Origin: Pseudodesulfovibrio mercurii
Lineage (GTDB): Bacteria > Desulfobacterota > Desulfovibrionia > Desulfovibrionales > Desulfovibrionaceae
Length of the DNA: 32,000 nt
Reading direction: 5' to 3'
Assembly (NCBI RefSeq): GCF_000189295.2
Contig: NC_016803.1
Coordinates: forward strand, 1,140,001 to 1,172,000
The position numbers were made by a program, and so were the translations under genes. Positions 8,770 to 25,814 of this stretch are shown here, one piece after another; positions within the stretch are counted from its first letter, which is position 1; each line of letters starts with the position of its first letter. The notes below the pieces were generated by a model. That model saw only the letters and a program-made list of their open reading frames with translations, was not told where the DNA came from and made no database searches.

Positions 8770-9702
8770 ATGCGCCCCATCGACCCGAAACAGACATCCT
8801 ACGGCTTCGCCGCCGCCCTGGCCGCCTTCCTGGGCTGGGGCCTCCTGCCCGTCTACTGGAAGGGCCTGATCACCGTGAACCCCTTCGAGATCCTCTGCCA
8901 CCGGGTGGTCTGGTCCCTGGTCTTCATCGCGGTCATCCTGACCCTGCGCCGGGGGTGGGGCGAGACCTTCTCCCCGCTCAAGTCGCCGCGCGACCTGCTC
9001 ATCCTGACGGCCAGCTCGCTCATGATCGGCTGCAACTGGCTGCTGTACATCTGGGCCGTGAACACCGACCACGTGCTCGAGACCAGCCTGGGCTATTACA
9101 TCAATCCCCTGGTCAACGTCCTGCTCGGCTTCGTCTTCTTCCGCGAGCGGCTGCGCCCGCTCCAGACAGTGGCCATCGGCCTGGCCGCCCTGGGCGTGGC
9201 CAACTCGGTCATGGCCCACGGCGAGCTGCCGTGGATCTCCCTGGCCCTGGCCGTGAGCTTCGGCCTGTACGGGCTGCTGCGCAAGATCGCCTCAGTGGAG
9301 TCCCTGCCCGGCCTATTCCTCGAGACCATGGTGCTGGGGCCCTTCGCCCTGGGCTACATCCTCTGGCTCCAGGCCCACGGCGCGTCCGCCCTGTTCCACC
9401 AGGGGCTCTCCGTGGACCTGCTGCTCCTGGGCGCGGGCGTGGTCACGGCCTCGCCGCTCATCGGCTTCGCCTACGGGGCCCGGCGGCTGCAACTGACCAC
9501 CCTGGGGCTGCTCCAGTACCTCTCCCCGTCCATCGCCTTCCTGCTCGGCGTGTACGTCTACAGGGAGCCGTTCACCCCGAGCCACCTGCTGACCTTCGCC
9601 CTGATCTGGGCAGGGCTGATCGTCTACACCGTGGAATCGGTCCTGACCATGCGCCACCAGCGCCGCCTGCGCCGCCCGGCGGCTCCCCGGCACGCGGCCT
9701 GA
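8770..9702 (+). CDS. rarD: RarD / EamA (DMT superfamily) transporter
   Basis: ATG 8770 follows GAGGAG. Close motif matches to E. coli RarD are present: ILCHRVVWS, GCNWLLYIWAVN, LETSLGYYINPLVNVLLG and LGLLQYLSPS. Confidence 0.85.
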   Translation: MRPIDPKQTSYGFAAALAAFLGWGLLPVYWKGLITVNPFEILCHRVVWSLVFIAVILTLRRGWGETFSPLKSPRDLLILTASSLMIGCNWLLYIWAVNTDHVLETSLGYYINPLVNVLLGFVFFRERLRPLQTVAIGLAALGVANSVMAHGELPWISLALAVSFGLYGLLRKIASVESLPGLFLETMVLGPFALGYILWLQAHGASALFHQGLSVDLLLLGAGVVTASPLIGFAYGARRLQLTTLGLLQYLSPSIAFLLGVYVYREPFTPSHLLTFALIWAGLIVYTVESVLTMRHQRRLRRPAAPRHAA

Positions 9703-9733
9703 CGGCCCGGTCCCGCGCCCCGTCCCCGCACCG

Positions 9734-9762
9734 TTGACAACCGCAGCTTCATCGCCTATCGT
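9734..9762 (+). promoter_or_regulatory. Putative sigma70 promoter of arsR-hgcAB
   Basis: TTGACA (9734-9739), a 17-nt spacer, then TATCGT (9757-9762). The predicted TSS is about 9769, only 2-3 nt before ATG 9772, which implies a near-leaderless arsR. Pattern match only. Confidence 0.35.
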
Positions 9763-9775
9763 CGATGTACGATGA
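9749..9775. promoter_or_regulatory. 27-bp dyad (candidate ArsR operator) overlapping the -10 element and the arsR start codon
   Basis: The sequence is TCATCG-cct-ATCG-T-CGAT-gta-CGATGA, symmetric about position 9762. Twenty of 26 positions are self-complementary. Confidence 0.35.
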
Positions 9776-10116
9776 AAGAGACTGAAGACGCCATGCAGAC
9801 CAACCCCACGGCCCGGACCGACGACGAGACGTTCCTTGCCGACGTGTGCAAGGGGTTGGCCCATCCGGCGCGCGTCAGCATCCTCCGGCGACTGCTTGCC
9901 GAGGACCGCTGCGTCTGCGGCCGCCTGGTCGAAGGGCTGCCCCTGGCCCAGTCCACGGTCAGTCAGCATCTCAAGATTCTCAAGAATGCCGGTCTGGTGC
10001 GCGGTGAGGTGGAAGGTCCCAGGACCTGCTATTGCATCGACCGCGAGACCCTGGCCCGCTTTGCCCCCCTCGTCCGCTCCCTGCTTCGCGCAGGACTCGC
10101 CAAGGAGGCGTCATGA
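9772..10116 (+). CDS. arsR: ArsR/SmtB-family metalloregulator
   Basis: The 114-aa product contains LAHPARVSILRRLL, a wHTH region QSTVSQHLKILKNAGLV, an alpha3 Cys-Val-Cys (DRCVCGRL) like the As(III)-type sensing site, and an additional CYC near the C-terminus. Confidence 0.85.
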   Translation: MKETEDAMQTNPTARTDDETFLADVCKGLAHPARVSILRRLLAEDRCVCGRLVEGLPLAQSTVSQHLKILKNAGLVRGEVEGPRTCYCIDRETLARFAPLVRSLLRAGLAKEAS

Positions 10117-10223
10117 AAGGACTCGACGACAAGCCCCTGACCGGGACCACCCCCGAGCCCCTCGAACCCCTGGCCCTGATGGCCCCGCCGGACGTTCCGG
10201 CCCGAGACGACGCGCCCTGTTGA
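10113..10223 (+). CDS. 36-codon upstream ORF in frame with hgcA, ending at a single TGA. It may be a leader peptide or the N-terminal part of a UGA-recoded HgcA.
   Basis: ATG 10113 overlaps the arsR stop (ATGA). It is preceded by AAGGAGG (10102-10108). G/C third-position bias is maintained. It shares a reading frame with the hgcA ORF 10275..11303. Confidence 0.35.
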   Translation: MKGLDDKPLTGTTPEPLEPLALMAPPDVPARDDAPC

Positions 10224-10274
10224 GGGCCCAGGCCCGACCCCCGTGCCGGGGTCTTCGAAAAGCCGGGCTACGCC

Positions 10275-11303
10275 GTGGAACCCTTTGTGGACGGCTTCGC
10301 CAGGACGGCGGCCGGTCCGGTGCCGCGCGTGCGCACCTATCTGCGCCGCGACGACCGCGTGGGCGATCTGCGCGCCCGCCTGGGCACCAACCGCCACGAC
10401 TTCAAGGTGGTGCCTGGCCTGTACTGCGTGGGCGAGCCCGACCGGACCTCGCCGGTCCTGGTCACCGCCAACTACAAGCTGACCTTCGACACCCTGCGCG
10501 AGCGGCTGACCTCCATCGACGCCTGGCTGCTGGTGGTGGATACGCGCGGCATCAACGTCTGGTGCGCGGCGGGCAAGGGGTTGTTCACCGCTTCCGAGGT
10601 GGCCTTCAGCGTCAACGCGGTCCGGCTGCACCAGGTGGTCGAGCACCGCGAACTGATCCTGCCCCAGCTGGCCGCCACGGGCGTGGCCGCCCGCGAGGTG
10701 GAGCGCATCTGCGGCTTCAAGGTCCTATGGGGCCCCATCCGGGCCAGGGACCTGCCCGCCTTCCTGCGCAACGGCAACAAGGCGGACGAGGCCATGCGCG
10801 GCGTGACCTTCACCTTACGCGAACGGGCCGCGCTCATCCCGGTGGAACTGTACCAGCTGCGCAAGCCCCTGTTCGCGGCCATTCCGCTGCTCTTCCTGCT
10901 CTCCGCCCTGGGGCCGGACCTCTTTTCCCCGCCCGCCCTGTGGCAGCGGGGCATCTCGGCCGTCACGGCCACCCTGGTCGGCGCGCTGGCGGGCAGCGTG
11001 CTGGTCCCCCTGTTCCTGAACAGGCTGCCCTGGCGGCAGTTCTGGCCCAAAGGCGCGCTGGTCGGCGGGGCCGCCGGGACCCTGGCGGCACTGTACCTGC
11101 CCGTGCACGGCTGGGCCGACCCCCTGGCCCTGACGCTCTGGGCCACGGCCGTGGCCTCCTGGCAGGCCATGAATTTCACGGGCTCGACCCCCTACACCTC
11201 GCCCTCGGGCGTGGAAAAGGAAATGCGCCGGGGCATGCCGCTCCAGGCACTGGCCGCGCTGGCCGCCGCAGGGCTGTGGCTGGCCGGGCCGTTCCTCGGT
11301 TGA
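10275..11303 (+). CDS. hgcA: HgcA, the corrinoid protein of the mercury methylation system
   Basis: The 342-codon ORF starts at GTG 10275; in-frame GTG 10287 gives 338 aa. The diagnostic cap-helix motif is GINVWCAAGKG, with the Cys codon at 10563-10565. The C-terminal half has about 5 predicted TM helices. hgcB follows 14 nt downstream. Neither GTG has a clear SD (see findings). Confidence 0.9.
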   Translation: MEPFVDGFARTAAGPVPRVRTYLRRDDRVGDLRARLGTNRHDFKVVPGLYCVGEPDRTSPVLVTANYKLTFDTLRERLTSIDAWLLVVDTRGINVWCAAGKGLFTASEVAFSVNAVRLHQVVEHRELILPQLAATGVAAREVERICGFKVLWGPIRARDLPAFLRNGNKADEAMRGVTFTLRERAALIPVELYQLRKPLFAAIPLLFLLSALGPDLFSPPALWQRGISAVTATLVGALAGSVLVPLFLNRLPWRQFWPKGALVGGAAGTLAALYLPVHGWADPLALTLWATAVASWQAMNFTGSTPYTSPSGVEKEMRRGMPLQALAALAAAGLWLAGPFLG

Positions 11304-11317
11304 CCGGGAGACTGATG

Positions 11318-11605
11318 ATGAAGGATTTCCGCTATATCGACGGCGTGTCCAGCCTGGCGCTCGACACGGACAAGTGCGTGGGCTGCGGGTCCTGCGTGGA
11401 CGTCTGCCCGCACCGCATCCTGGCCGTGCGGGAGCGCAAGACGACCATCCTCGACTTCGACGCCTGCATGGAGTGCGGGGCCTGCGCCCGCAACTGCCCG
11501 GTGGAGGCGATCACCGTCACCCCCGGCACGGGCTGCGCCGCCTACCTGGTCTCGGTCTGGCTGCACCGGCTGACCGGGCGCAAGATCGACGCCGCCTGCT
11601 GCTAG
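11318..11605 (+). CDS. hgcB: HgcB, the 2x[4Fe-4S] ferredoxin partner of HgcA
   Basis: GGGAG lies 7 nt upstream; ATG 11315 is also possible. The 95-aa product has two CX2CX2CX3C motifs (CVGCGSCVDVC, CMECGACARNC), an extra Cys73 and a C-terminal Cys94-Cys95. Confidence 0.9.
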   Translation: MKDFRYIDGVSSLALDTDKCVGCGSCVDVCPHRILAVRERKTTILDFDACMECGACARNCPVEAITVTPGTGCAAYLVSVWLHRLTGRKIDAACC

Positions 11606-12156
11606 TCCGCGAGCAGGGCGGGCAGCTCGGCCACGGTCAGGACCCGCGCGTAGGCCGCGCCCAGGGCGGCCAGAAACGCGCCGTGCACCTGGCCCGCCGG
11701 GATGGTCCGCCCGGCGAAGACGAGGTCGCGGGTGGCCGAGGCATCGGCCAGGACCAGGCAATCGAAGCCGAGGTCCGCGGCCGCGCGTACCCCGGCGTCC
11801 AGGCACATGTGGGTCATCATTCCGGCCACGGCCAGCCGTTCCACCCCGGCCGCACGCAATTGCGCGAGCAGGTCCGTGTCCCGGAAGCTGTTGGGATAGT
11901 GCTTGGTGATTACGGACTCCCCCTCCAGCGGGCGGACCGACCCGTGGATGGCCGCGCCCTCGGTGCCGGGCAGGAAGAAGGTCGCGCCCTCGTACGTGGA
12001 TTCGTGGCGGACGTGGTACACGGGCAGGCCGCGCTTCCGGAACAACGCGAGAGCCTCGGCCGCGCGGGCCGAAGCCTCCGGGCCGCCGACGAGTTCCATG
12101 CGTCCGCCGGGGAAATAGTCGTTTTGCAGATCGATGAGCAACAGCGCCGTGAGCAT
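11602..12156 (-). CDS. Isochorismatase-family cysteine hydrolase
   Basis: The 184-aa product contains LLLIDLQNDYF and the catalytic-Cys region VAGMMTHMCLDA. Its stop overlaps the hgcB stop by 4 nt (CTAG), in convergent orientation. Confidence 0.85.
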   Translation of the reverse strand: MLTALLLIDLQNDYFPGGRMELVGGPEASARAAEALALFRKRGLPVYHVRHESTYEGATFFLPGTEGAAIHGSVRPLEGESVITKHYPNSFRDTDLLAQLRAAGVERLAVAGMMTHMCLDAGVRAAADLGFDCLVLADASATRDLVFAGRTIPAGQVHGAFLAALGAAYARVLTVAELPALLAD

Positions 12157-12343: not shown

Positions 12344-12697
12344 ATGACCGACCTGCCCGCGCACGATTCCCTGTGCGTCGTCTGGACCTCCTCCGACCCC
12401 GAAGTGGCCGACAACCTGGCCTTCATGTATGCGCACAACGCCCTGCGCGAGGGGTGGTGGGAACGGGTCCGGCTGATCATCTGGGGACCCTCGGCCGCCC
12501 TGGCCGCCCGTGACGGACACATCCGGGCGCGGATCACGGAGATGCTGGACGACGGCGTGGAGGTCTGGGCCTGCCGGGCCTGCGCAGAGAACTACGGCGT
12601 GGTCGACTCCCTCGAAGCGCTGGGCGCACACGTGCTCTACGTGGGCAAACCCTTCACCGACATGCTCAAGGGCGGCTGGACCCAGCTGACCTTCTGA
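12344..12697 (+). CDS. DsrE/DsrF-like family protein (117 aa)
   Basis: The size, alpha/beta pattern and the segment VEVWACRACAENYG resemble DsrE-like sulfur-relay/peroxiredoxin-like proteins. The assignment is from memory of the family and is not verified. Confidence 0.55.
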   Translation: MTDLPAHDSLCVVWTSSDPEVADNLAFMYAHNALREGWWERVRLIIWGPSAALAARDGHIRARITEMLDDGVEVWACRACAENYGVVDSLEALGAHVLYVGKPFTDMLKGGWTQLTF

Positions 12698-12738: not shown

Positions 12739-13167
12739 GTGAACGACACGCAGCGCCATACGACCCACGCGCCGGACAACCCCGTGCACATCCTCGTCGC
12801 CGAGGACTCGGAGAGCAACCAGATGCTCCTCTCCCTGTACCTGAACGATTCCGGCTACGCCCTGGACTTCGCCATGAACGGCCGCGACGCCGTGGAACGC
12901 TTCAAGAGCGGCTCCTACGGCCTGGTGCTCATGGACATCTTCATGCCCGTCCTGGACGGGCTGGACGCCACCCGCGAGATCCGCGCCTTCGAAAAGGAGC
13001 GGGGGCTCGCCCCGGTGCCCATCGTGGCCGTGTCGGCCAACGCCTTTGACGAGGACAGGAAGCGCTCCATGAAGGCGGGCTGCTCCGATTTCCTGGCCAA
13101 GCCCATCCGCAAGATTCCGCTGCTCAAGTTTCTCGCCGACACCCTCGGCAAAAAACCGCTGCCATGA
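12739..13167 (+). CDS. Single-domain response regulator
   Basis: GTG start. The product contains ILVAEDSESNQ, LVLMDIFMPVLDG, VAVSANA and LAKP. Its stop overlaps the start of the downstream kinase (ATGA). Confidence 0.8.
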   Translation: MNDTQRHTTHAPDNPVHILVAEDSESNQMLLSLYLNDSGYALDFAMNGRDAVERFKSGSYGLVLMDIFMPVLDGLDATREIRAFEKERGLAPVPIVAVSANAFDEDRKRSMKAGCSDFLAKPIRKIPLLKFLADTLGKKPLP

Positions 13168-15215
13168 CCCGCGCAGCCCTCCTCCGCAACATCCTCAAAC
13201 TACAGGAACCGGAAGCCGCACTGGCCTGCCGGACGGAGGGGGGACCGCCGGGCGAGGCGCGCATCATCGAGGCCAACGAGGCCGCCAGCGCCCTGCTCGG
13301 CCTGAGCCGGGAGGAACTGCTGGACCGGACGCCCGGCGAGGTCATCACCAATTTCGCGGCCCTGGCCGGAGACGCGCCCGCCTTCGAGACCGGCTCCCAG
13401 CGCATCGAGCACACCCTGTGCGGCAAAGGCCGGGCCACGCCCGTGGAGATCCGCTCCCACGGCCTGGACCTCGACGGCGATCCCCTCTTCGTCCTCATCC
13501 TCCGGGACATCACCGTGCGGCGACGGCGGGAGATGAAGAACGACCTGGACGAACAGCGGTTCAAGACCCTGTACAGCCTGTCGCGAATGATCAACCGACC
13601 CGAAGAGCACATCCTGGACTACGCCCTGGTGCAGAGCGTGTACATGACCGACAGCCGCATGGGCTACATCGGCTTCCTGGACGAAACCGAGTCCCGGCTG
13701 CTCCTGCGCCCCTGGACCGTGCCCGGCCTGGGCGAGTGCACCGTGAAGGACAGATCGCGGGTCTTCGCCATCGAAGGGGCCGGGCTGTGGGCCGAGGCCG
13801 TGCGCCAGCGCCGACCGATCATCACCAACGACTACGCCTCGGCCCCGAACAGGCGGGGCACCCCCGAAGGGCATGTGCCGCTCGTCCGACACATGAACGT
13901 CCCGGTCATGGACAACAACCGCATCCGGATGCTGGTCGGCGTGGCCAACAAGGACGAGGACTACACCGAATCCGACGTGGTCCAGCTCTCCCTGATCATG
14001 GAGGGGGTCTGGCACATCATCCAGCGCAAGCGCATGGAGGCCGACCTGATCCGGGCCATGCGCGAGGCCCGCCAAGCCGACCGGGCCAAGAGCCAGTTCC
14101 TGGCCAACATGAGCCACGAGCTGCGCACCCCCCTAAACGGCATCATGGGCATGACCCAACTCCTCCTGGGCAGCGGGGGGCTGACCGAGGAACAGCGGGA
14201 ATACCTGTCCCTCAGCCTGGAATCGAGCATCAACCTGTCCGGGGTGCTGACCTCCCTGCTCGACCTGTCGAGCATCGAATCCGGCGGCACCGGGCTGACC
14301 CGGACGGACTTCGACCTGCCCGACGTCATCCGGTCCGCCGTGACCCCCCAGCTCCCCCAGGCCGAACTCAAGGGGCTGCAACTCGCCTGCCGCCTGGACG
14401 GCTCCGTCCCGGCGCGGGCTCACGGCGACGGGGAAAAACTGCGTCAGATCATCGTCAACCTGGTGCACAACGGGGTGAAGTTCACCCAGGAGGGGTTGGT
14501 CACGGTGACCGCCTCCTGCGCGCCGCGCGAGGACGTCCCGGACGGGATCACACTGTCCGTCTCGGTGGCGGACACCGGCGTGGGCATCCCCGAGGACAAG
14601 CGCGAGGCCGTGTTCGAGAGCTTCATGCTCGGCGAGGAGTACATGACCAAGCGGTACAGCGGCCTGGGCCTCGGCCTGACCATCTCCCGCAAGCTGGCCG
14701 AACTCATGGGCGGAACCCTCGAACTCGAACACCACACGGGCAAGGGGTCCGTGTTCACCCTGAAGGTGCCCCTGCTGCGCCGGACGAACTGGACCGAGTT
14801 CCCTGCCCCGGACGAAACGACCGACCCGAAGCTGAACATCCTGGTGGCCGAGGACGAGGAGATCAACGCCCTGGCCACCTCGCGCCTGCTGCGCACGCAG
14901 GGCCACGCCGCCATCGTGGTGGACAACGGCCAGCGCGCCATCGACGCCCTGATGCGGGGCGGTTTCGACATGGTCCTCATGGATGTGCAGATGCCGGTCA
15001 TCAACGGCCTGGAGGTCACGGAGATCATCCGTTCGGGCGCGGCCGAGGGCATCGACGCGGGCATCCCGATCATCGGCCTGACCGCCTTTGCCGACGAGGG
15101 AGACCGCGCCCGGTTCCTCGACGCGGGCATGGACGATGTCGTGACCAAGCCCTTCGACGCCCACCGGCTCCTGGACGCCGTGCGCCTGGTGGCCCGGACC
15201 CGCGGACGCGTCTGA
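13164..15215 (+). CDS. Hybrid sensor histidine kinase (PAS-GAF-HisKA-HATPase-receiver)
   Basis: The 683-aa product has the H-box FLANMSHELRTPLNGI, N/G boxes (NLVHNGVKFT, DTGVGIP, GLGLGLTIS) and a C-terminal receiver (ILVAEDEEINA, MVLMDVQMPVINGLE, TKP). Confidence 0.9.
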   Translation: MTRAALLRNILKLQEPEAALACRTEGGPPGEARIIEANEAASALLGLSREELLDRTPGEVITNFAALAGDAPAFETGSQRIEHTLCGKGRATPVEIRSHGLDLDGDPLFVLILRDITVRRRREMKNDLDEQRFKTLYSLSRMINRPEEHILDYALVQSVYMTDSRMGYIGFLDETESRLLLRPWTVPGLGECTVKDRSRVFAIEGAGLWAEAVRQRRPIITNDYASAPNRRGTPEGHVPLVRHMNVPVMDNNRIRMLVGVANKDEDYTESDVVQLSLIMEGVWHIIQRKRMEADLIRAMREARQADRAKSQFLANMSHELRTPLNGIMGMTQLLLGSGGLTEEQREYLSLSLESSINLSGVLTSLLDLSSIESGGTGLTRTDFDLPDVIRSAVTPQLPQAELKGLQLACRLDGSVPARAHGDGEKLRQIIVNLVHNGVKFTQEGLVTVTASCAPREDVPDGITLSVSVADTGVGIPEDKREAVFESFMLGEEYMTKRYSGLGLGLTISRKLAELMGGTLELEHHTGKGSVFTLKVPLLRRTNWTEFPAPDETTDPKLNILVAEDEEINALATSRLLRTQGHAAIVVDNGQRAIDALMRGGFDMVLMDVQMPVINGLEVTEIIRSGAAEGIDAGIPIIGLTAFADEGDRARFLDAGMDDVVTKPFDAHRLLDAVRLVARTRGRV

Positions 15216-21788: not shown

Positions 21789-21971
21789 AGTGTTTTTATC
21801 CCTTAAACAAGCGTTTCAGCGGCTTCCCGGGCGGTTCCGGGCCGTTTTCCCCTCCCCGGAAACGGTCCGTCCGGGGGGCTCAACAAATGCCGTTTGCCAG
21901 GACAGGAATCCCGCTTTGACTTCGCCCCCGATTCCCTGCACTATCGCGCCATCCAAAAGGCGGCAGCGGTG

Positions 21972-24900
21972 ATGAGCCAAGAGATTCCGAACATACGCAC
22001 ACTGGCCACGGCCATGGAGACCCTTGCCCAGGGGCGCGCCCCGAGCGGCGGGCCCGGCATCGGCGGCCTGGCCGTGGAGTTCCTGGAATGGTGCGACCGC
22101 ACCCCGCGCCCGGCCCATGCCGAGGCCGTCCTCCTGGCCGAGGCCGTGCTGGCCATGTACCGCCTGGCCGCCAACTCCGGCGACATCCACACCATCCAGA
22201 CCTGCTTCCAGGCCCTGGTCCGTTCGGGACGGTTCGGGCGGACCCTGTGCGCCCGCCTGATCACCGCCCGCAACGCGCCCCTGGCCCGGCTGGACCCCAA
22301 AGTGGCGGCCTGGCCCGCCCGCGACCGGCTGACCCTGGTCCACGAGATGCTCCTGGACCTGCCCGGCGACAAGGACAAGGAACTGCTGACCTGGCTCGAA
22401 GGGGTGCTCAAGCCGCTCATGGGCACGGACCCAGAGGAGCTGGTCCCGTTCGTGGCGCGGCTCGGCGAACAGGGCGAGCTCCTGGCCTTTCCGGTCCGCC
22501 AGGTCATCGTGGGCGGGCTGTTCGGCCGGTTCATCAACTCCCAGCTGACCAACGGCGTGGCGGGCACGGACCTGGAACAGCTCTGCCGGGTCATCCGGGG
22601 CATGGGCGACGCGGCCTATGCCGAGGCCCTGGCCAAGGCCGTGTCCCTGGGCCGGATCAAGGCCGACGTCGAGGTCCTGCGGACCGTCGCGACCGTGGGC
22701 GAGGCGGGCAACAAGACCATCCTGGCCATGCTCCTGAACATCCTGCCCAAGGCGGACGCCAGGCTGGCCGGGGCGTGCCTGGACGCGCTCATCAGCCAGG
22801 ACCATCCGGCCATGGGCAAGGTCCTGGCCTCCATCCGCTCGCGCATGCCGGCCCTGCGCGCCGCCGCCGTGTCCCGCGCCCCGCTGCTCGGGGACATCGG
22901 CCTGGTCCAGTATCTTTCCTCCCTGCCCGAGGAGCGCCGCGACGACGCCCTGCTGGAGATGTTCGGCGTGCTCGAGACGATCGCCCCGGACTTCGTACGC
23001 AACGCGGCCGGCGCCTGCCCGCCCCGGGGCACGAACTCGCCGCGCGCCCGCGAGGGTTCGACCCCGCCTCCACAGCCCGGAGAAGAGCCCGAACCGGCCA
23101 GGACCGGCTTCTTCAAGGGATTGTTCAAGTCCCGGCCCAAGACCCTCCAGGAGCTGCTGCCCAAGCCGGGAAACATCCGCGATATGGACCTGCCCGGCTC
23201 CATGGTGGACGGCGAACAGCTGGAAAACCGCGAGCTGACCGGCCTGGGGCTGGCCGGAACCGCCTTTGTCCGGACCAGCTTCTTCCGGGGCAAGGTGGGC
23301 GACGCCGACCTGACCGGCGGGCTCTTCCGCGACTGCGTCCTGTCCGGCACGGAGTTCCGCGAGGTCCGCTTCAACGGCGCGGAGTTCGCGGACACCCGGT
23401 TCGAGGAGTGCGTGTTCACGGACTGCGTCTTCACCGGCGCGGTCTTCTCAGGCTGCACCTTCGAGGGATGCCGCTTCCGCTCCTCGGTCTTCAGCGAGGC
23501 CTCCTTCCGCGACGTCCGGCTGACGGGCACGGACCTGACCGCCTGCTCCCTGGCGGGCAGCGCCCTGCACGGCTGTTCCCTGCGCGCCGTCAGGTTCGAG
23601 GCCTGCGACCTGTCCTTCGCCGAGCTCGTCGGCGACGACTGCCGGGGCGTGGAGCTGCGCCAGACCTGCCTGCACGGGCTGTACATACGGGACTGCGTGC
23701 TGCTGTCCATGGAGCTGCCCGGCTCGCTCGTGACCCGGTCCGTGATCAAGAATTCCGACGCCGGGCACCCGCAGTTCCTGGCCAACCGGCTACGCCAGAT
23801 GACCCTGTTCGCCCGCGAGGCGGAGAAGGGGGGCATGCCCGGCGGCCGGGAGACCGACCCCTTCACGGCCCGCAAGGCCCTGACCGCCTGGTCGCGCGAG
23901 CTGACCTTCATGCGCCGGGAACGGCGCATGCTCGACAACAACCGCCAGCGCATGCACCGGGCCATGGGCACACTGTCCCGCGACCAGCAGGCCTTCCTGC
24001 GCATGCTCCCCCTGCTCCTGGACTGCGACGTGTTCGAGCGGCGCTACAACTTCGGCAACATCCCCTCCTGCCGGGTCTGGGGCTACTACCCCTGCCTGAG
24101 CGACCTGGAGCTGGTCCGCGAGCGGCTGGACATGGAGCCCGAGCCCGACCCCTCGCCCGAGGTGCGCATCCTGGCGGTCTACGCCATGGGCAGTCTTGGC
24201 ACCGTGGCCCAGACGTCGAGTTCGGACCTGGACTGCTGGGTCTGCTACGACGGCGACGTGACCATGACCATGGAGCACGGCCTGACGCGCAAACTCAACG
24301 CCATGGCCCTGTGGGCGGAGAGCGAGTACGGGCTGGAGGTCCACTTCTACCCCATGCGCATGGACGACGTGCGCGACAACCGCTTCCTGTCCGGGGACGA
24401 GGAGAGCTCGGGCTCGGCCCAGGTCCTGCTGCTCAAGGAGGAGTTCTACCGCACGGCGCTGAAGCTGGCGGGCAAGAACATCGCCTGGTGGGTCATCCCG
24501 GCCGGGGCCAGCCGCAAGATGTACGAGTCGTGCATCCGCGCGGCCCGGCGCTACCCCCTGTGCGGCAAGCCGCGCCTGGAGGACTTCGGCCACCTGGCCG
24601 AGGTGCCGCCGGACGAATACTTCGGCGGCTCCCTGTGGCAGATGGTCAAGGCCGTGCACGCGCCCTTCAAGTCCGTGCTCAAGCTCGGCCTGCTCGAGAC
24701 CTACGCCGCACCCGGCGCGTCCGCCCTGCCCCTGTGCGACCGCATCAAGCGCAACCTGATCCGCAACCGCCAGGGCAAGCTCGACACCGACCCGTACACC
24801 GCCCTGTACTCCACCCTGCACGACTACTACAGCGGGCGCGGGGAGGACAACGCCGCGGCCCTGCTCAAGGAGTCCTTCCGGCTCAAGGCCAACCTGACGG

Positions 24901-25814
24901 ACATCCCGCTGTTCATGAACCTGCCCACCCGGCCCGAGGACGAATCCCTGATCTCGGTCCTGTTCGGCTCGGGCTACGTGGAACCGGGCAGGCTGGCCGA
25001 GACGCACCGCACCTGGCCCTTCGACAAGTCCCTGCGCATGGGCTCGCACGTGCGCCGCTACATGGTCGATACCTACCGGCGCATCCAGGAGGGGCTGGCC
25101 GCCGGCGGCCGCTCCACGGGCCGGACCAAGGCGCTGATCAACCCCGAGGACCTGACGCGCATGGGCCGCCGCATCGCCGCCAACTTCGCCTCCAAGCCGA
25201 ACAAGATCCTGCGCGTGCCGTTCATGGACACCAGGGAGAACGGCTTCCCCATCCTGCACTTCGCCGCGGAAAAGACGCCGGGCAAGCCGCCCGCCTGGAC
25301 CGTGCGCGGGGGCGAGCGGGTAGAGGCCAAGCAGTCCGCCGTGCATCTCCAGCTGCTGCACCGCAACCAGGACCCGGTGCACCTGCTGGCCTGGCTGCTG
25401 GCCAACCGCATCTACCACCCCAAGAGCCTGCTCCAGGCGGACCGGACCATCGCGCCCATCGCCCTGGCCGACCTGCAGCGGCTCATGGGCTCCCTGCACG
25501 AATTCTTCCCCTTTGCCGAGACCTTCGAGCCGGACATCAACGAGGGGCTGCGCGCCGAGACCGTGCTGCGGGCCTTCTTCATCCTCAACCTGGCCTCCCC
25601 GCCCGAGACCGGGCGCATCGAGCAGGCCGCCGTGATCTACGCCACCAACTGGGGCGAGATGTTCTGCCGCACCTTTGTCCGGCCCGGCCAGCTGTTCGAA
25701 CACAGCCCGGCCCGGTTCCTGTCCGAAAAGATCGGCCAGCCCCTGGCCGAAGCCGCGCAACTGGGCCTGTTCGCGCCCAAGGGGTCCCAATGCCGACGCA
25801 TCAGCCTGACCTGA
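21972..25814 (+). CDS. cyaA: Class I (CyaA-type) adenylate cyclase with a roughly 650-aa N-terminal extension (helical-repeat region, Pro-rich linker and pentapeptide-repeat domain)
   Basis: ATG 21972 lies within ORF 21894..25814; the track start is TTG. Clear matches to E. coli CyaA catalytic-domain motifs: [25 protein letters not shown] vs [42 protein letters not shown] vs LLLDEFYRTAVRLAGK, and [31 protein letters not shown] vs [31 protein letters not shown]. Pentapeptide repeats span about 23220-23757. Confidence 0.85.
   Translation: [1280 protein letters not shown]

Follow-up and report, generated by a model that had tools for sequence, protein, structure and literature searches.

An in-frame UGA in the hgcA locus of Pseudodesulfovibrio mercurii ND132 that very probably encodes selenocysteine in an N-terminally extended HgcA

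Introduction

HgcA makes the neurotoxin methylmercury, and Pseudodesulfovibrio mercurii ND132 is the main model organism. In the stretch of the ND132 genome analysed here (NC_016803.1, positions 1,140,001 to 1,172,000 of the forward strand, 32,000 nucleotides, referred to below as the window), the gene annotated as hgcA (DND132_1056) is preceded by a 36-codon open reading frame (ORF), which has been deposited as a separate entry, the "hypothetical protein" DND132_1055. This short ORF ends at a single TGA that lies in the same frame as hgcA. The locus raises the question of whether the UGA terminates a peptide of its own, or is decoded as selenocysteine (Sec) within a longer HgcA. Comparison with other hgcA loci suggests that UGA 10221 is very probably decoded as Sec in vivo.

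The original prediction, made from the letters of the window, proposed a Sec-containing extension of HgcA and supposed that it had not been described before. In this last respect it was mistaken. Haft and Gwadz (bioRxiv 10.1101/2022.07.06.499078; J Bacteriol 2023, 205:e00259-22) examined DND132_1056, GSU1440 and 18 other HgcA genes. In their account, all 20 genes extend upstream through a single UGA in an invariant PCUGP motif, giving HgcA selenoproteins of 363-400 aa, and the extension for DND132_1056 is given as MAPPDVPARDDAPCUGPRPDPRAGVFEKPGYAVEPFV. The same account states that the Sec machinery is encoded by all 20 species, ND132 included, proposes a heavy-metal-binding role for the Cys-Sec (CU) pair, including the idea of Hg(II) capture, and describes an update of the reference data of the Prokaryotic Genome Annotation Pipeline (PGAP), by which RefSeq annotates such hgcA genes as selenoproteins. 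A 2026 review lists HgcA (NF040863, CU motif) among the prokaryotic selenoproteins, and a 2024 PNAS study of HgcAB, in which the 37-kDa (338-aa) HgcA was expressed in E. coli, cites Haft and Gwadz. The Sec extension of the DND132_1056 HgcA is a rediscovery of the result published in 2022/2023. What is added here is a conserved geometry of the selenocysteine insertion sequence (SECIS), a control that compares Sec-type with Cys-type loci, a case against re-initiation, and a start codon assigned to ATG 10113.

Results and discussion

UGA and Cys codons at the same position of hgcA

The 80 hgcA loci that matched best among other species, with one genome per species (L001-L080), were collected and translated upstream in frame. 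TGA was present at the homologous codon in 20 of the 80 loci (25%), within the motif PC*GP[KR]P[ED]PR[SA]G[VI]xE[RK][PA]GY, and these loci together with ND132 form the Sec-type set of 21 sequences. At least 30 loci were of a strict Cys-Cys type, with TGC or TGT at this codon, in the motif ..CCG[SP]P.GP.S...EKPGY. The CC/CU motif was absent from about 19 loci, including the Desulfobacula and Desulfotignum types, which contain a single Cys before EKPGY. The share of Sec-type loci is lower than the "great majority" of selenoproteins stated in the preprint by Haft and Gwadz, though the two samplings differ.

A protein search using the N-terminal 158 residues, with Cys in place of the TGA, retrieved numerous HgcA fragments from metagenomes whose alignment spans the TGA position, with the consensus …D/E-x-(V/A/P)-C-C-G-(S/P)-P-x-G-P-x-S…E-K-P-G-Y-x-L-x-x-F-V-x-x-F-x-x-T-P-x-G-P-V-P-R-V. 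When 29 Cys-type proteins were aligned with ND132, C36, C37 and G38 were invariant, and P51, G52, V59, F62, T65, G68 and V70 were conserved in at least 90%. The pattern …DxxPC[U/C]G…EKPGY..xFV.xF is conserved on both flanks of codon 37, and the motifs L.PL.LMAPP and DDAPC of the extension are also found in L001 and in Cys-type homologs. Conservation of the EKPGY segment had been named in the original prediction as something to check; protein conservation does run across the TGA and includes this segment. The corresponding codon of the relatives is TGA or TGY, in agreement with the proposal of Sec at codon 37 in an adjacent Cys-Sec pair.

In 21/21 Sec-type sequences the upstream frame ran without a stop for 29 codons or more, compared with 13/21 and 9/21 for the other two frames. 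Frameshifts or extra stops were not seen in the upstream regions of the Sec-type loci. Two findings named in the original prediction as telling against it, a broken upstream frame and the lack of a Cys/Sec alignment, were not encountered. The UGA lies in frame within an ORF with homology continuing on both sides, and Cys (TGY) homologs are aligned to it. As evidence from sequence, this Sec/Cys alignment, together with the open upstream frame, is the standard computational signature of a selenoprotein.

Many of the Cys-type HgcA homologs contain a second CC or CxC near the extreme N-terminus, such as QKxxCC or MTSCC, which precedes the conserved CCG by 25-35 residues. This second N-terminal motif is missing from the ND132 extension.

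A hairpin downstream of the UGA

In all but one or two of the Sec-type loci, the RNA can form a stem from about +16 to +34, counted from the U of the UGA. The apical loop lies at +22 to +28 in 19/21 sequences, and contains GU in 15/21, most often as GGUC. In ND132 the stem spans +16 to +33 and the loop (CGUGCC) +22 to +27, where positions +23 and +24 are G and U. The stems vary between lineages with pairing kept (GACCCC/GGGGUC, GAACCCC/GGGGUUC, CCGAGGCC/GGCCUCGG, CCCCUG/CAGGGG), and four loci contain a CCAC/GUGG stem. A bacterial SECIS is marked by a stem-loop just past the UGA with a G/U-containing apical loop ~20-25 nt from it, and this is the arrangement found here.

The same 26 nt were folded in 21 Sec-type and 30 Cys-type sequences, and gave a mean hairpin ΔG of -10.2 kcal/mol and -3.9 kcal/mol, respectively (Mann-Whitney p = 2.6e-7, a value that overstates independence, as the Sec-type loci are phylogenetically related). 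Ranked against synonymous recodings of their own peptide, the Sec-type hairpins had a median rank of 0.069, compared to 0.48 for the Cys-type, indicating that both the peptide …(E/D)PR(S/A)GV… and its codons have been shaped by RNA structure. The hairpin is position-conserved and specific to TGA-bearing loci, which strengthens the earlier proposal of a SECIS upper stem-loop at 10236-10253. The accessible part of the account by Haft and Gwadz gives no SECIS for HgcA, and mentions that the authors' runs on a SECIS server failed.

As a reference, the sequence 3' of the Sec codon of E. coli fdhF (UGA140 with its SECIS, decoded by SelB) was checked against 5,419 E. coli genomes and folded in the same way. 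Its loop, GGUC, lies at +22 to +25 from the U of the UGA, and the Sec-type hgcA loops resemble it both in their position and in being mostly GGUC or GU. Unlike fdhF, the hgcA stems are GC-rich C4/G4 helices, and the loop in ND132 reads CGUGCC instead of GGUC. The E. coli fdhF SECIS has a bulged U17, and no bulged U matching it is evident in the HgcA hairpins.

Start codon and overlap with arsR

The extended hgcA start overlaps the stop codon of an upstream arsR by 4 nt (ATGA or GTGA) in ND132 (window 10113-10116), L001 (2824-2827), L003 (2836-2839) and L015 (2839-2842), and in L051 and L068 the extended start is located 7 nt past the arsR stop. In about 30 of the 80 loci, among Sec, Cys and other types, the gene immediately preceding hgcA is an arsR homolog. 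The conserved overlap suggests that translation of the enzyme is coupled to that of the regulator. Since arsR has been reported to be co-transcribed with hgcAB, coupling from arsR to hgcA is plausible. The Shine-Dalgarno (SD) sequence AAGGAGG in front of ATG 10113 is the sole copy within the arsR-hgcAB locus. On both strands of the window this heptamer occurs 12 times, against 3.8 expected from shuffles, an excess that is consistent with frequent use of long SD sequences by this genome.

An in-frame ATG or GTG is present 29-41 codons before the TGA in every Sec-type locus except L040, for which the only upstream starts are a TTG at -34 or an ATG at -59. In ND132, the 17 codons after the TGA (GPRPDPRAGVFEKPGYA) contain none of ATG, GTG and TTG before GTG 10275, and neither GTG 10275 nor GTG 10287 has a recognisable SD. 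All three start codons are absent within 60 codons past the TGA in L008, L011 and L040. The first candidate in L003, L004 and L013 occurs at +36, within the conserved VPRV core, and in some Sec-type loci the first downstream start is found only at +33 or +36. Of the 50 listed downstream start candidates, just 3 have an AGGA/GGAG match, which is weak and badly spaced, and a strong SD is found for none of them (0/50). Because several Sec-type loci have no downstream start, re-initiation is excluded as a general route to HgcA.

These observations speak for the 396-aa HgcA proposed in the original prediction, with the arsR-stop overlap kept in relatives and a downstream start codon missing from several of them. 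The extension given by Haft and Gwadz is a "minimal" one, starting from Met23 (ATG 10179). The evidence here favours ATG 10113 as the probable start (396 aa, 42.9 kDa), because the arsR overlap recurs, and because relatives have in common the segment L-x-P-(L/F)-x-x-M-A-P-P, which precedes the internal Met23.

Predicted structure of the extension

The exact post-UGA translation was modelled with AlphaFold2. The predicted local distance difference test score (pLDDT) was 51 over residues 1-10, rose to 65 over residues 11-20, and reached 95 over residues 21-40. A beta-strand starts at residue 22 of this model, which corresponds to the old GTG 10287 start, with pLDDT ~95, and confidence is already climbing through EKPGY. 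In the model of a Cys-type homolog (P0004), residues 1-34 are disordered. Just past the CC motif the confidence is ~72, with no regular secondary structure, and it is high from the FV segment onward. In these models the extension resembles a flexible arm, and the folded domain is predicted to begin upstream of the old start.

A search for a solved structure of HgcA found none, the closest being the large subunit of the corrinoid iron-sulfur protein (CFeSP; PDB 4DJD / 2H9A), which is homologous to the cobalamin-binding domain of HgcA (E = 4e-11). This homology begins ~60 residues past the Sec. Unlike the shared domain, both the EKPGY…VPRV segment and the arm with the CU pair are HgcA-specific. 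According to Haft and Gwadz, adjacent Cys-Sec pairs in proteins linked to organometallic compounds or mercury, as in HgcA, are also found in SaoL, SaoB and SaoC of the SAO system and in CU-type MerT-like proteins. The folds of these proteins are unrelated to HgcA, and their CU pair is located near the C-terminus or is extracytoplasmic, whereas that of HgcA is predicted to lie within a disordered cytoplasmic N-terminal arm.

Proposed decoding of UGA 10221 and evidence against it

We propose that translation begins at the SD-led ATG 10113, overlapping the arsR stop and probably coupled to it on the arsR-hgcAB co-transcript. The ribosome would meet UGA 10221-10223 past 36 codons, where SelB-GTP-Sec-tRNA(Sec), brought in by the stem-loop at 10236-10253, would insert Sec, and translation would proceed into the corrinoid domain. 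The product would be a 396-aa (~42.9 kDa) HgcA, 58 residues longer than the annotated form, with Cys36-Sec37 in a flexible N-terminal arm. The CU pair would likely serve in binding soft metal (Hg(II)), or in its hand-off near methyl-cobalamin and the C-terminal Cys-Cys of HgcB.

Several observations weigh against decoding of the UGA as Sec. In the window alone, statistical support for a Sec codon is weak. The GC content of the sequence is 68%, and open frames are common at such a composition. The 76-nt region 10215-10290, folded as a single sequence, was not better than its dinucleotide shuffles (z = +0.36). About 4% of all 26-nt windows in this stretch fold equally well as the 10236-10253 hairpin, and an equally good hairpin follows 3.7% of its TGA triplets. 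The rank of the ND132 hairpin among synonymous recodings, 0.074, is unremarkable in the window taken alone. Rfam, scanned over 9500-11000 with a permissive E-value, returned chance-level matches only and no SECIS family, and no selA, selB, selC or selD gene and no tRNA was found within the 32-kb window. Across the loci, RNAalifold on the codon-anchored alignment yielded 2 pairs only, and column-wise covariation was weak, with observed values barely above slid controls, because the hairpin register slips ±1 nt between lineages. Column covariation was replaced by the per-sequence hairpin energies, the Cys-type control and the synonymous-recoding test described above, for which the relatedness of the Sec-type loci is a further reservation. 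In the 2024 PNAS study, methylmercury was formed in lysates containing the 37-kDa HgcA with HgcB from E. coli, and the extension is therefore not essential for the core chemistry. A literature search retrieved no report in which Se was demonstrated in HgcA by 75Se labelling or mass spectrometry. It is only through the comparison with other hgcA loci that the feature stands far beyond chance.

Alternative readings of UGA 10221

If the UGA acts as a plain stop, DND132_1055 would be a leader peptide or upstream ORF (uORF), and GTG 10287 or 10275 would be the sole source of HgcA, perhaps through termination-reinitiation. This would agree with the original GenBank annotation, which keeps both genes as separate entries, and with the catalytic competence of the 338-aa HgcA made in E. 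coli. However, the residues encoded between the UGA and the GTG show protein-level conservation in Cys-type homologs, the old start falls in a confidently predicted strand, and the upstream peptide is poorly conserved save near the CU motif, unlike a functional leader. The two GTGs lack an SD, and at the place of 10275 L001 has GTC, a codon that does not serve as a start. Termination-reinitiation would call for a conserved restart codon with a ribosome-binding signal near the uORF stop, and this combination was not found; three Sec-type relatives have no start within 60 codons, and in others it occurs only inside the conserved core. On the start-less relatives and the conserved peptide between UGA and GTG, a pure leader peptide is rejected, and we consider it very improbable. 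Alternatively, the arrangement could be a relic, in which an ancestral Cys codon mutated to TGA, a dispensable N-terminal arm was cut off, and the GTG became the start. The arm can be lost, as illustrated by the ~19 of 80 loci without a CC or CU motif, but decay would be expected to bring frameshifts or extra stops, and none were seen. Sequences from several orders, 21 in all, share the TGA at this codon with flanks and frame intact, and the TGA is accompanied by a hairpin that is favoured by codon choice. The shared TGA codon, the Sec-specific hairpin, the codon choice and the open frames effectively refute this history, to which we attach almost no credence. Both the leader peptide and the relic had been put forward as alternatives in the original prediction, and both are disfavoured.

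A third reading accepts Sec decoding and adds a second outcome. Bacterial Sec decoding competes with RF2 termination. With ample Se the 396-aa Sec-HgcA would be made, and with limiting Se or SelB termination would yield the 36-aa peptide. For ND132 in particular, GTG 10275 or 10287 may then give rise to some short HgcA, and the amount or form of HgcA would follow the Se supply. The in-frame GTGs 18-22 codons past the UGA in ND132 and L001, which several relatives do not have, fit such a dual output, as do the activity of short HgcA in lysates and the reported abundance of HgcA, which is extremely low (~0.0004% of protein). Against it, the GTGs have no SD, and a start codon at these positions is not conserved across the Sec-type loci. 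On this evidence we hold a dual output to be rather unlikely. Decoding of UGA 10221 as Sec, leading to the 396-aa protein, remains the reading that we prefer.

Possible significance

If the native protein carries the Cys-Sec arm, the reference that has been used since 2013 (338 aa, Cys93 numbering) would be short by 58 N-terminal residues, and structural models and heterologous constructs derived from it would miss a probable metal-binding site. The Co-binding Cys93 of that reference would become Cys151 in the extended protein. The selenium supply could then influence methylation capacity. The extended reading also provides targets for proteomics, namely the tryptic peptide DDAPCUGPR and peptides from MKGLDDKPLTGTTPEPLEPLALMAPPDVPAR.

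A more far-reaching idea, which we put forward as speculative and on balance doubtful, is that the UGA and SECIS form a selenium-dependent gate on mercury methylation, with the Cys-Sec arm capturing Hg(II) and raising affinity or turnover at the picomolar to nanomolar Hg of the environment. Were this the case, limiting Se would cause translation to stop after codon 36, leaving little HgcA, or only short HgcA from the weak GTGs. Inefficient Sec decoding and coupling to arsR via the ATGA would also explain the low abundance of HgcA, and in vitro studies of the 37-kDa construct would have dealt with a truncated enzyme.

Gene organization of the locus

The features of the arsR-hgcAB locus are collected in Table 1. 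On re-reading of the window, all coordinates in the original prediction hold, including those of the SD, the ATGA overlap, the 36 codons, the TGA, the 17 codons that follow, the two GTGs and the hairpin. The last residue of the extension is Cys36 (TGT 10218-10220), and its end reads Asp-Asp-Ala-Pro-Cys. Initiation at GTG 10287 would give a 338-aa protein with an expected mass of about 36.7 kDa, and its sequence is identical to EGB14269.1 (DND132_1056, HgcA). The identity of HgcA is supported by a match to NF040863 of 436 bits (cut-off 275; E = 6e-131) covering residues 70-394 of the extended protein; the model begins at residue 70 and carries no information on the extension. The protein has a corrinoid-binding domain with the cap-helix motif N(V/I)WCA(A/G)GK, read in the translation as INVWCAAGKG, and a C-terminal membrane domain, and hgcB is its neighbour.

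Table 1. Positions of features of the arsR-hgcAB locus in the window
Feature	Position	Strand	Details
arsR-family regulator gene DND132_1054	9772..10116	+	ORF; NCBIfam NF033788 ArsR/SmtB, E = 1e-20; exact match EGB14267.1 / WP_014321695.1
SD sequence AAGGAGG	10102..10108	+	4-nt spacer to ATG 10113; GGAGG or GAGG at the same place in L001, L015, L051
Full hgcA coding sequence as read here	10113..11303	+	396 codons and stop; Sec is codon 37
N-terminal extension before Sec	10113..10220	+	36 codons, MKGLDDKPLTGTTPEPLEPLALMAPPDVPARDDAPC; formerly DND132_1055; exact match EGB14268.1
arsR stop TGA	10114-10116	+	shares bases with hgcA start ATG 10113 (ATGA)
In-frame TGA	10221..10223	+	same frame as hgcA; read as selenocysteine U37, motif PC-U-GP
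Coding segment GPRPDPRAGVFEKPGYAVEPF	10224..10286	+	between Sec codon and old start; aligns with G.P.GP.S…EKPGY.L..F of Cys-type homologs
SECIS-like upper stem-loop	10236..10253	+	6-bp stem GACCCC/GGGGUC, loop CGUGCC; begins 12 nt past TGA
GTG previously annotated as hgcA start	10287..10289	+	338-aa form, Cys93 numbering; GTG 10275 is an alternative candidate
hgcB ferredoxin gene	11315..11605	+	NF040864, E = 9e-36; directly downstream of hgcA

The HgcB encoded here has Cys, not Sec, at the position for which an occasional Sec is reported by Haft and Gwadz. A convergent gene of the isochorismatase family (Pfam PF00857; minus strand, 11602-12156) has a 4-nt overlap at its 3' end with the end of hgcB, whose stop is TAG 11603-11605, leaving no space for an intervening terminator.

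Further downstream on the plus strand, a 117-aa ORF (12344-12697) with a strongly coding-type GC content at third codon positions (0.90) gave no Pfam match at E <= 1e-5. It is located just upstream of a pair of genes for a response regulator and a hybrid histidine kinase (12739-15215). Another ORF on the plus strand (21894-25814), encoding 1306 aa, also has a coding-type composition.

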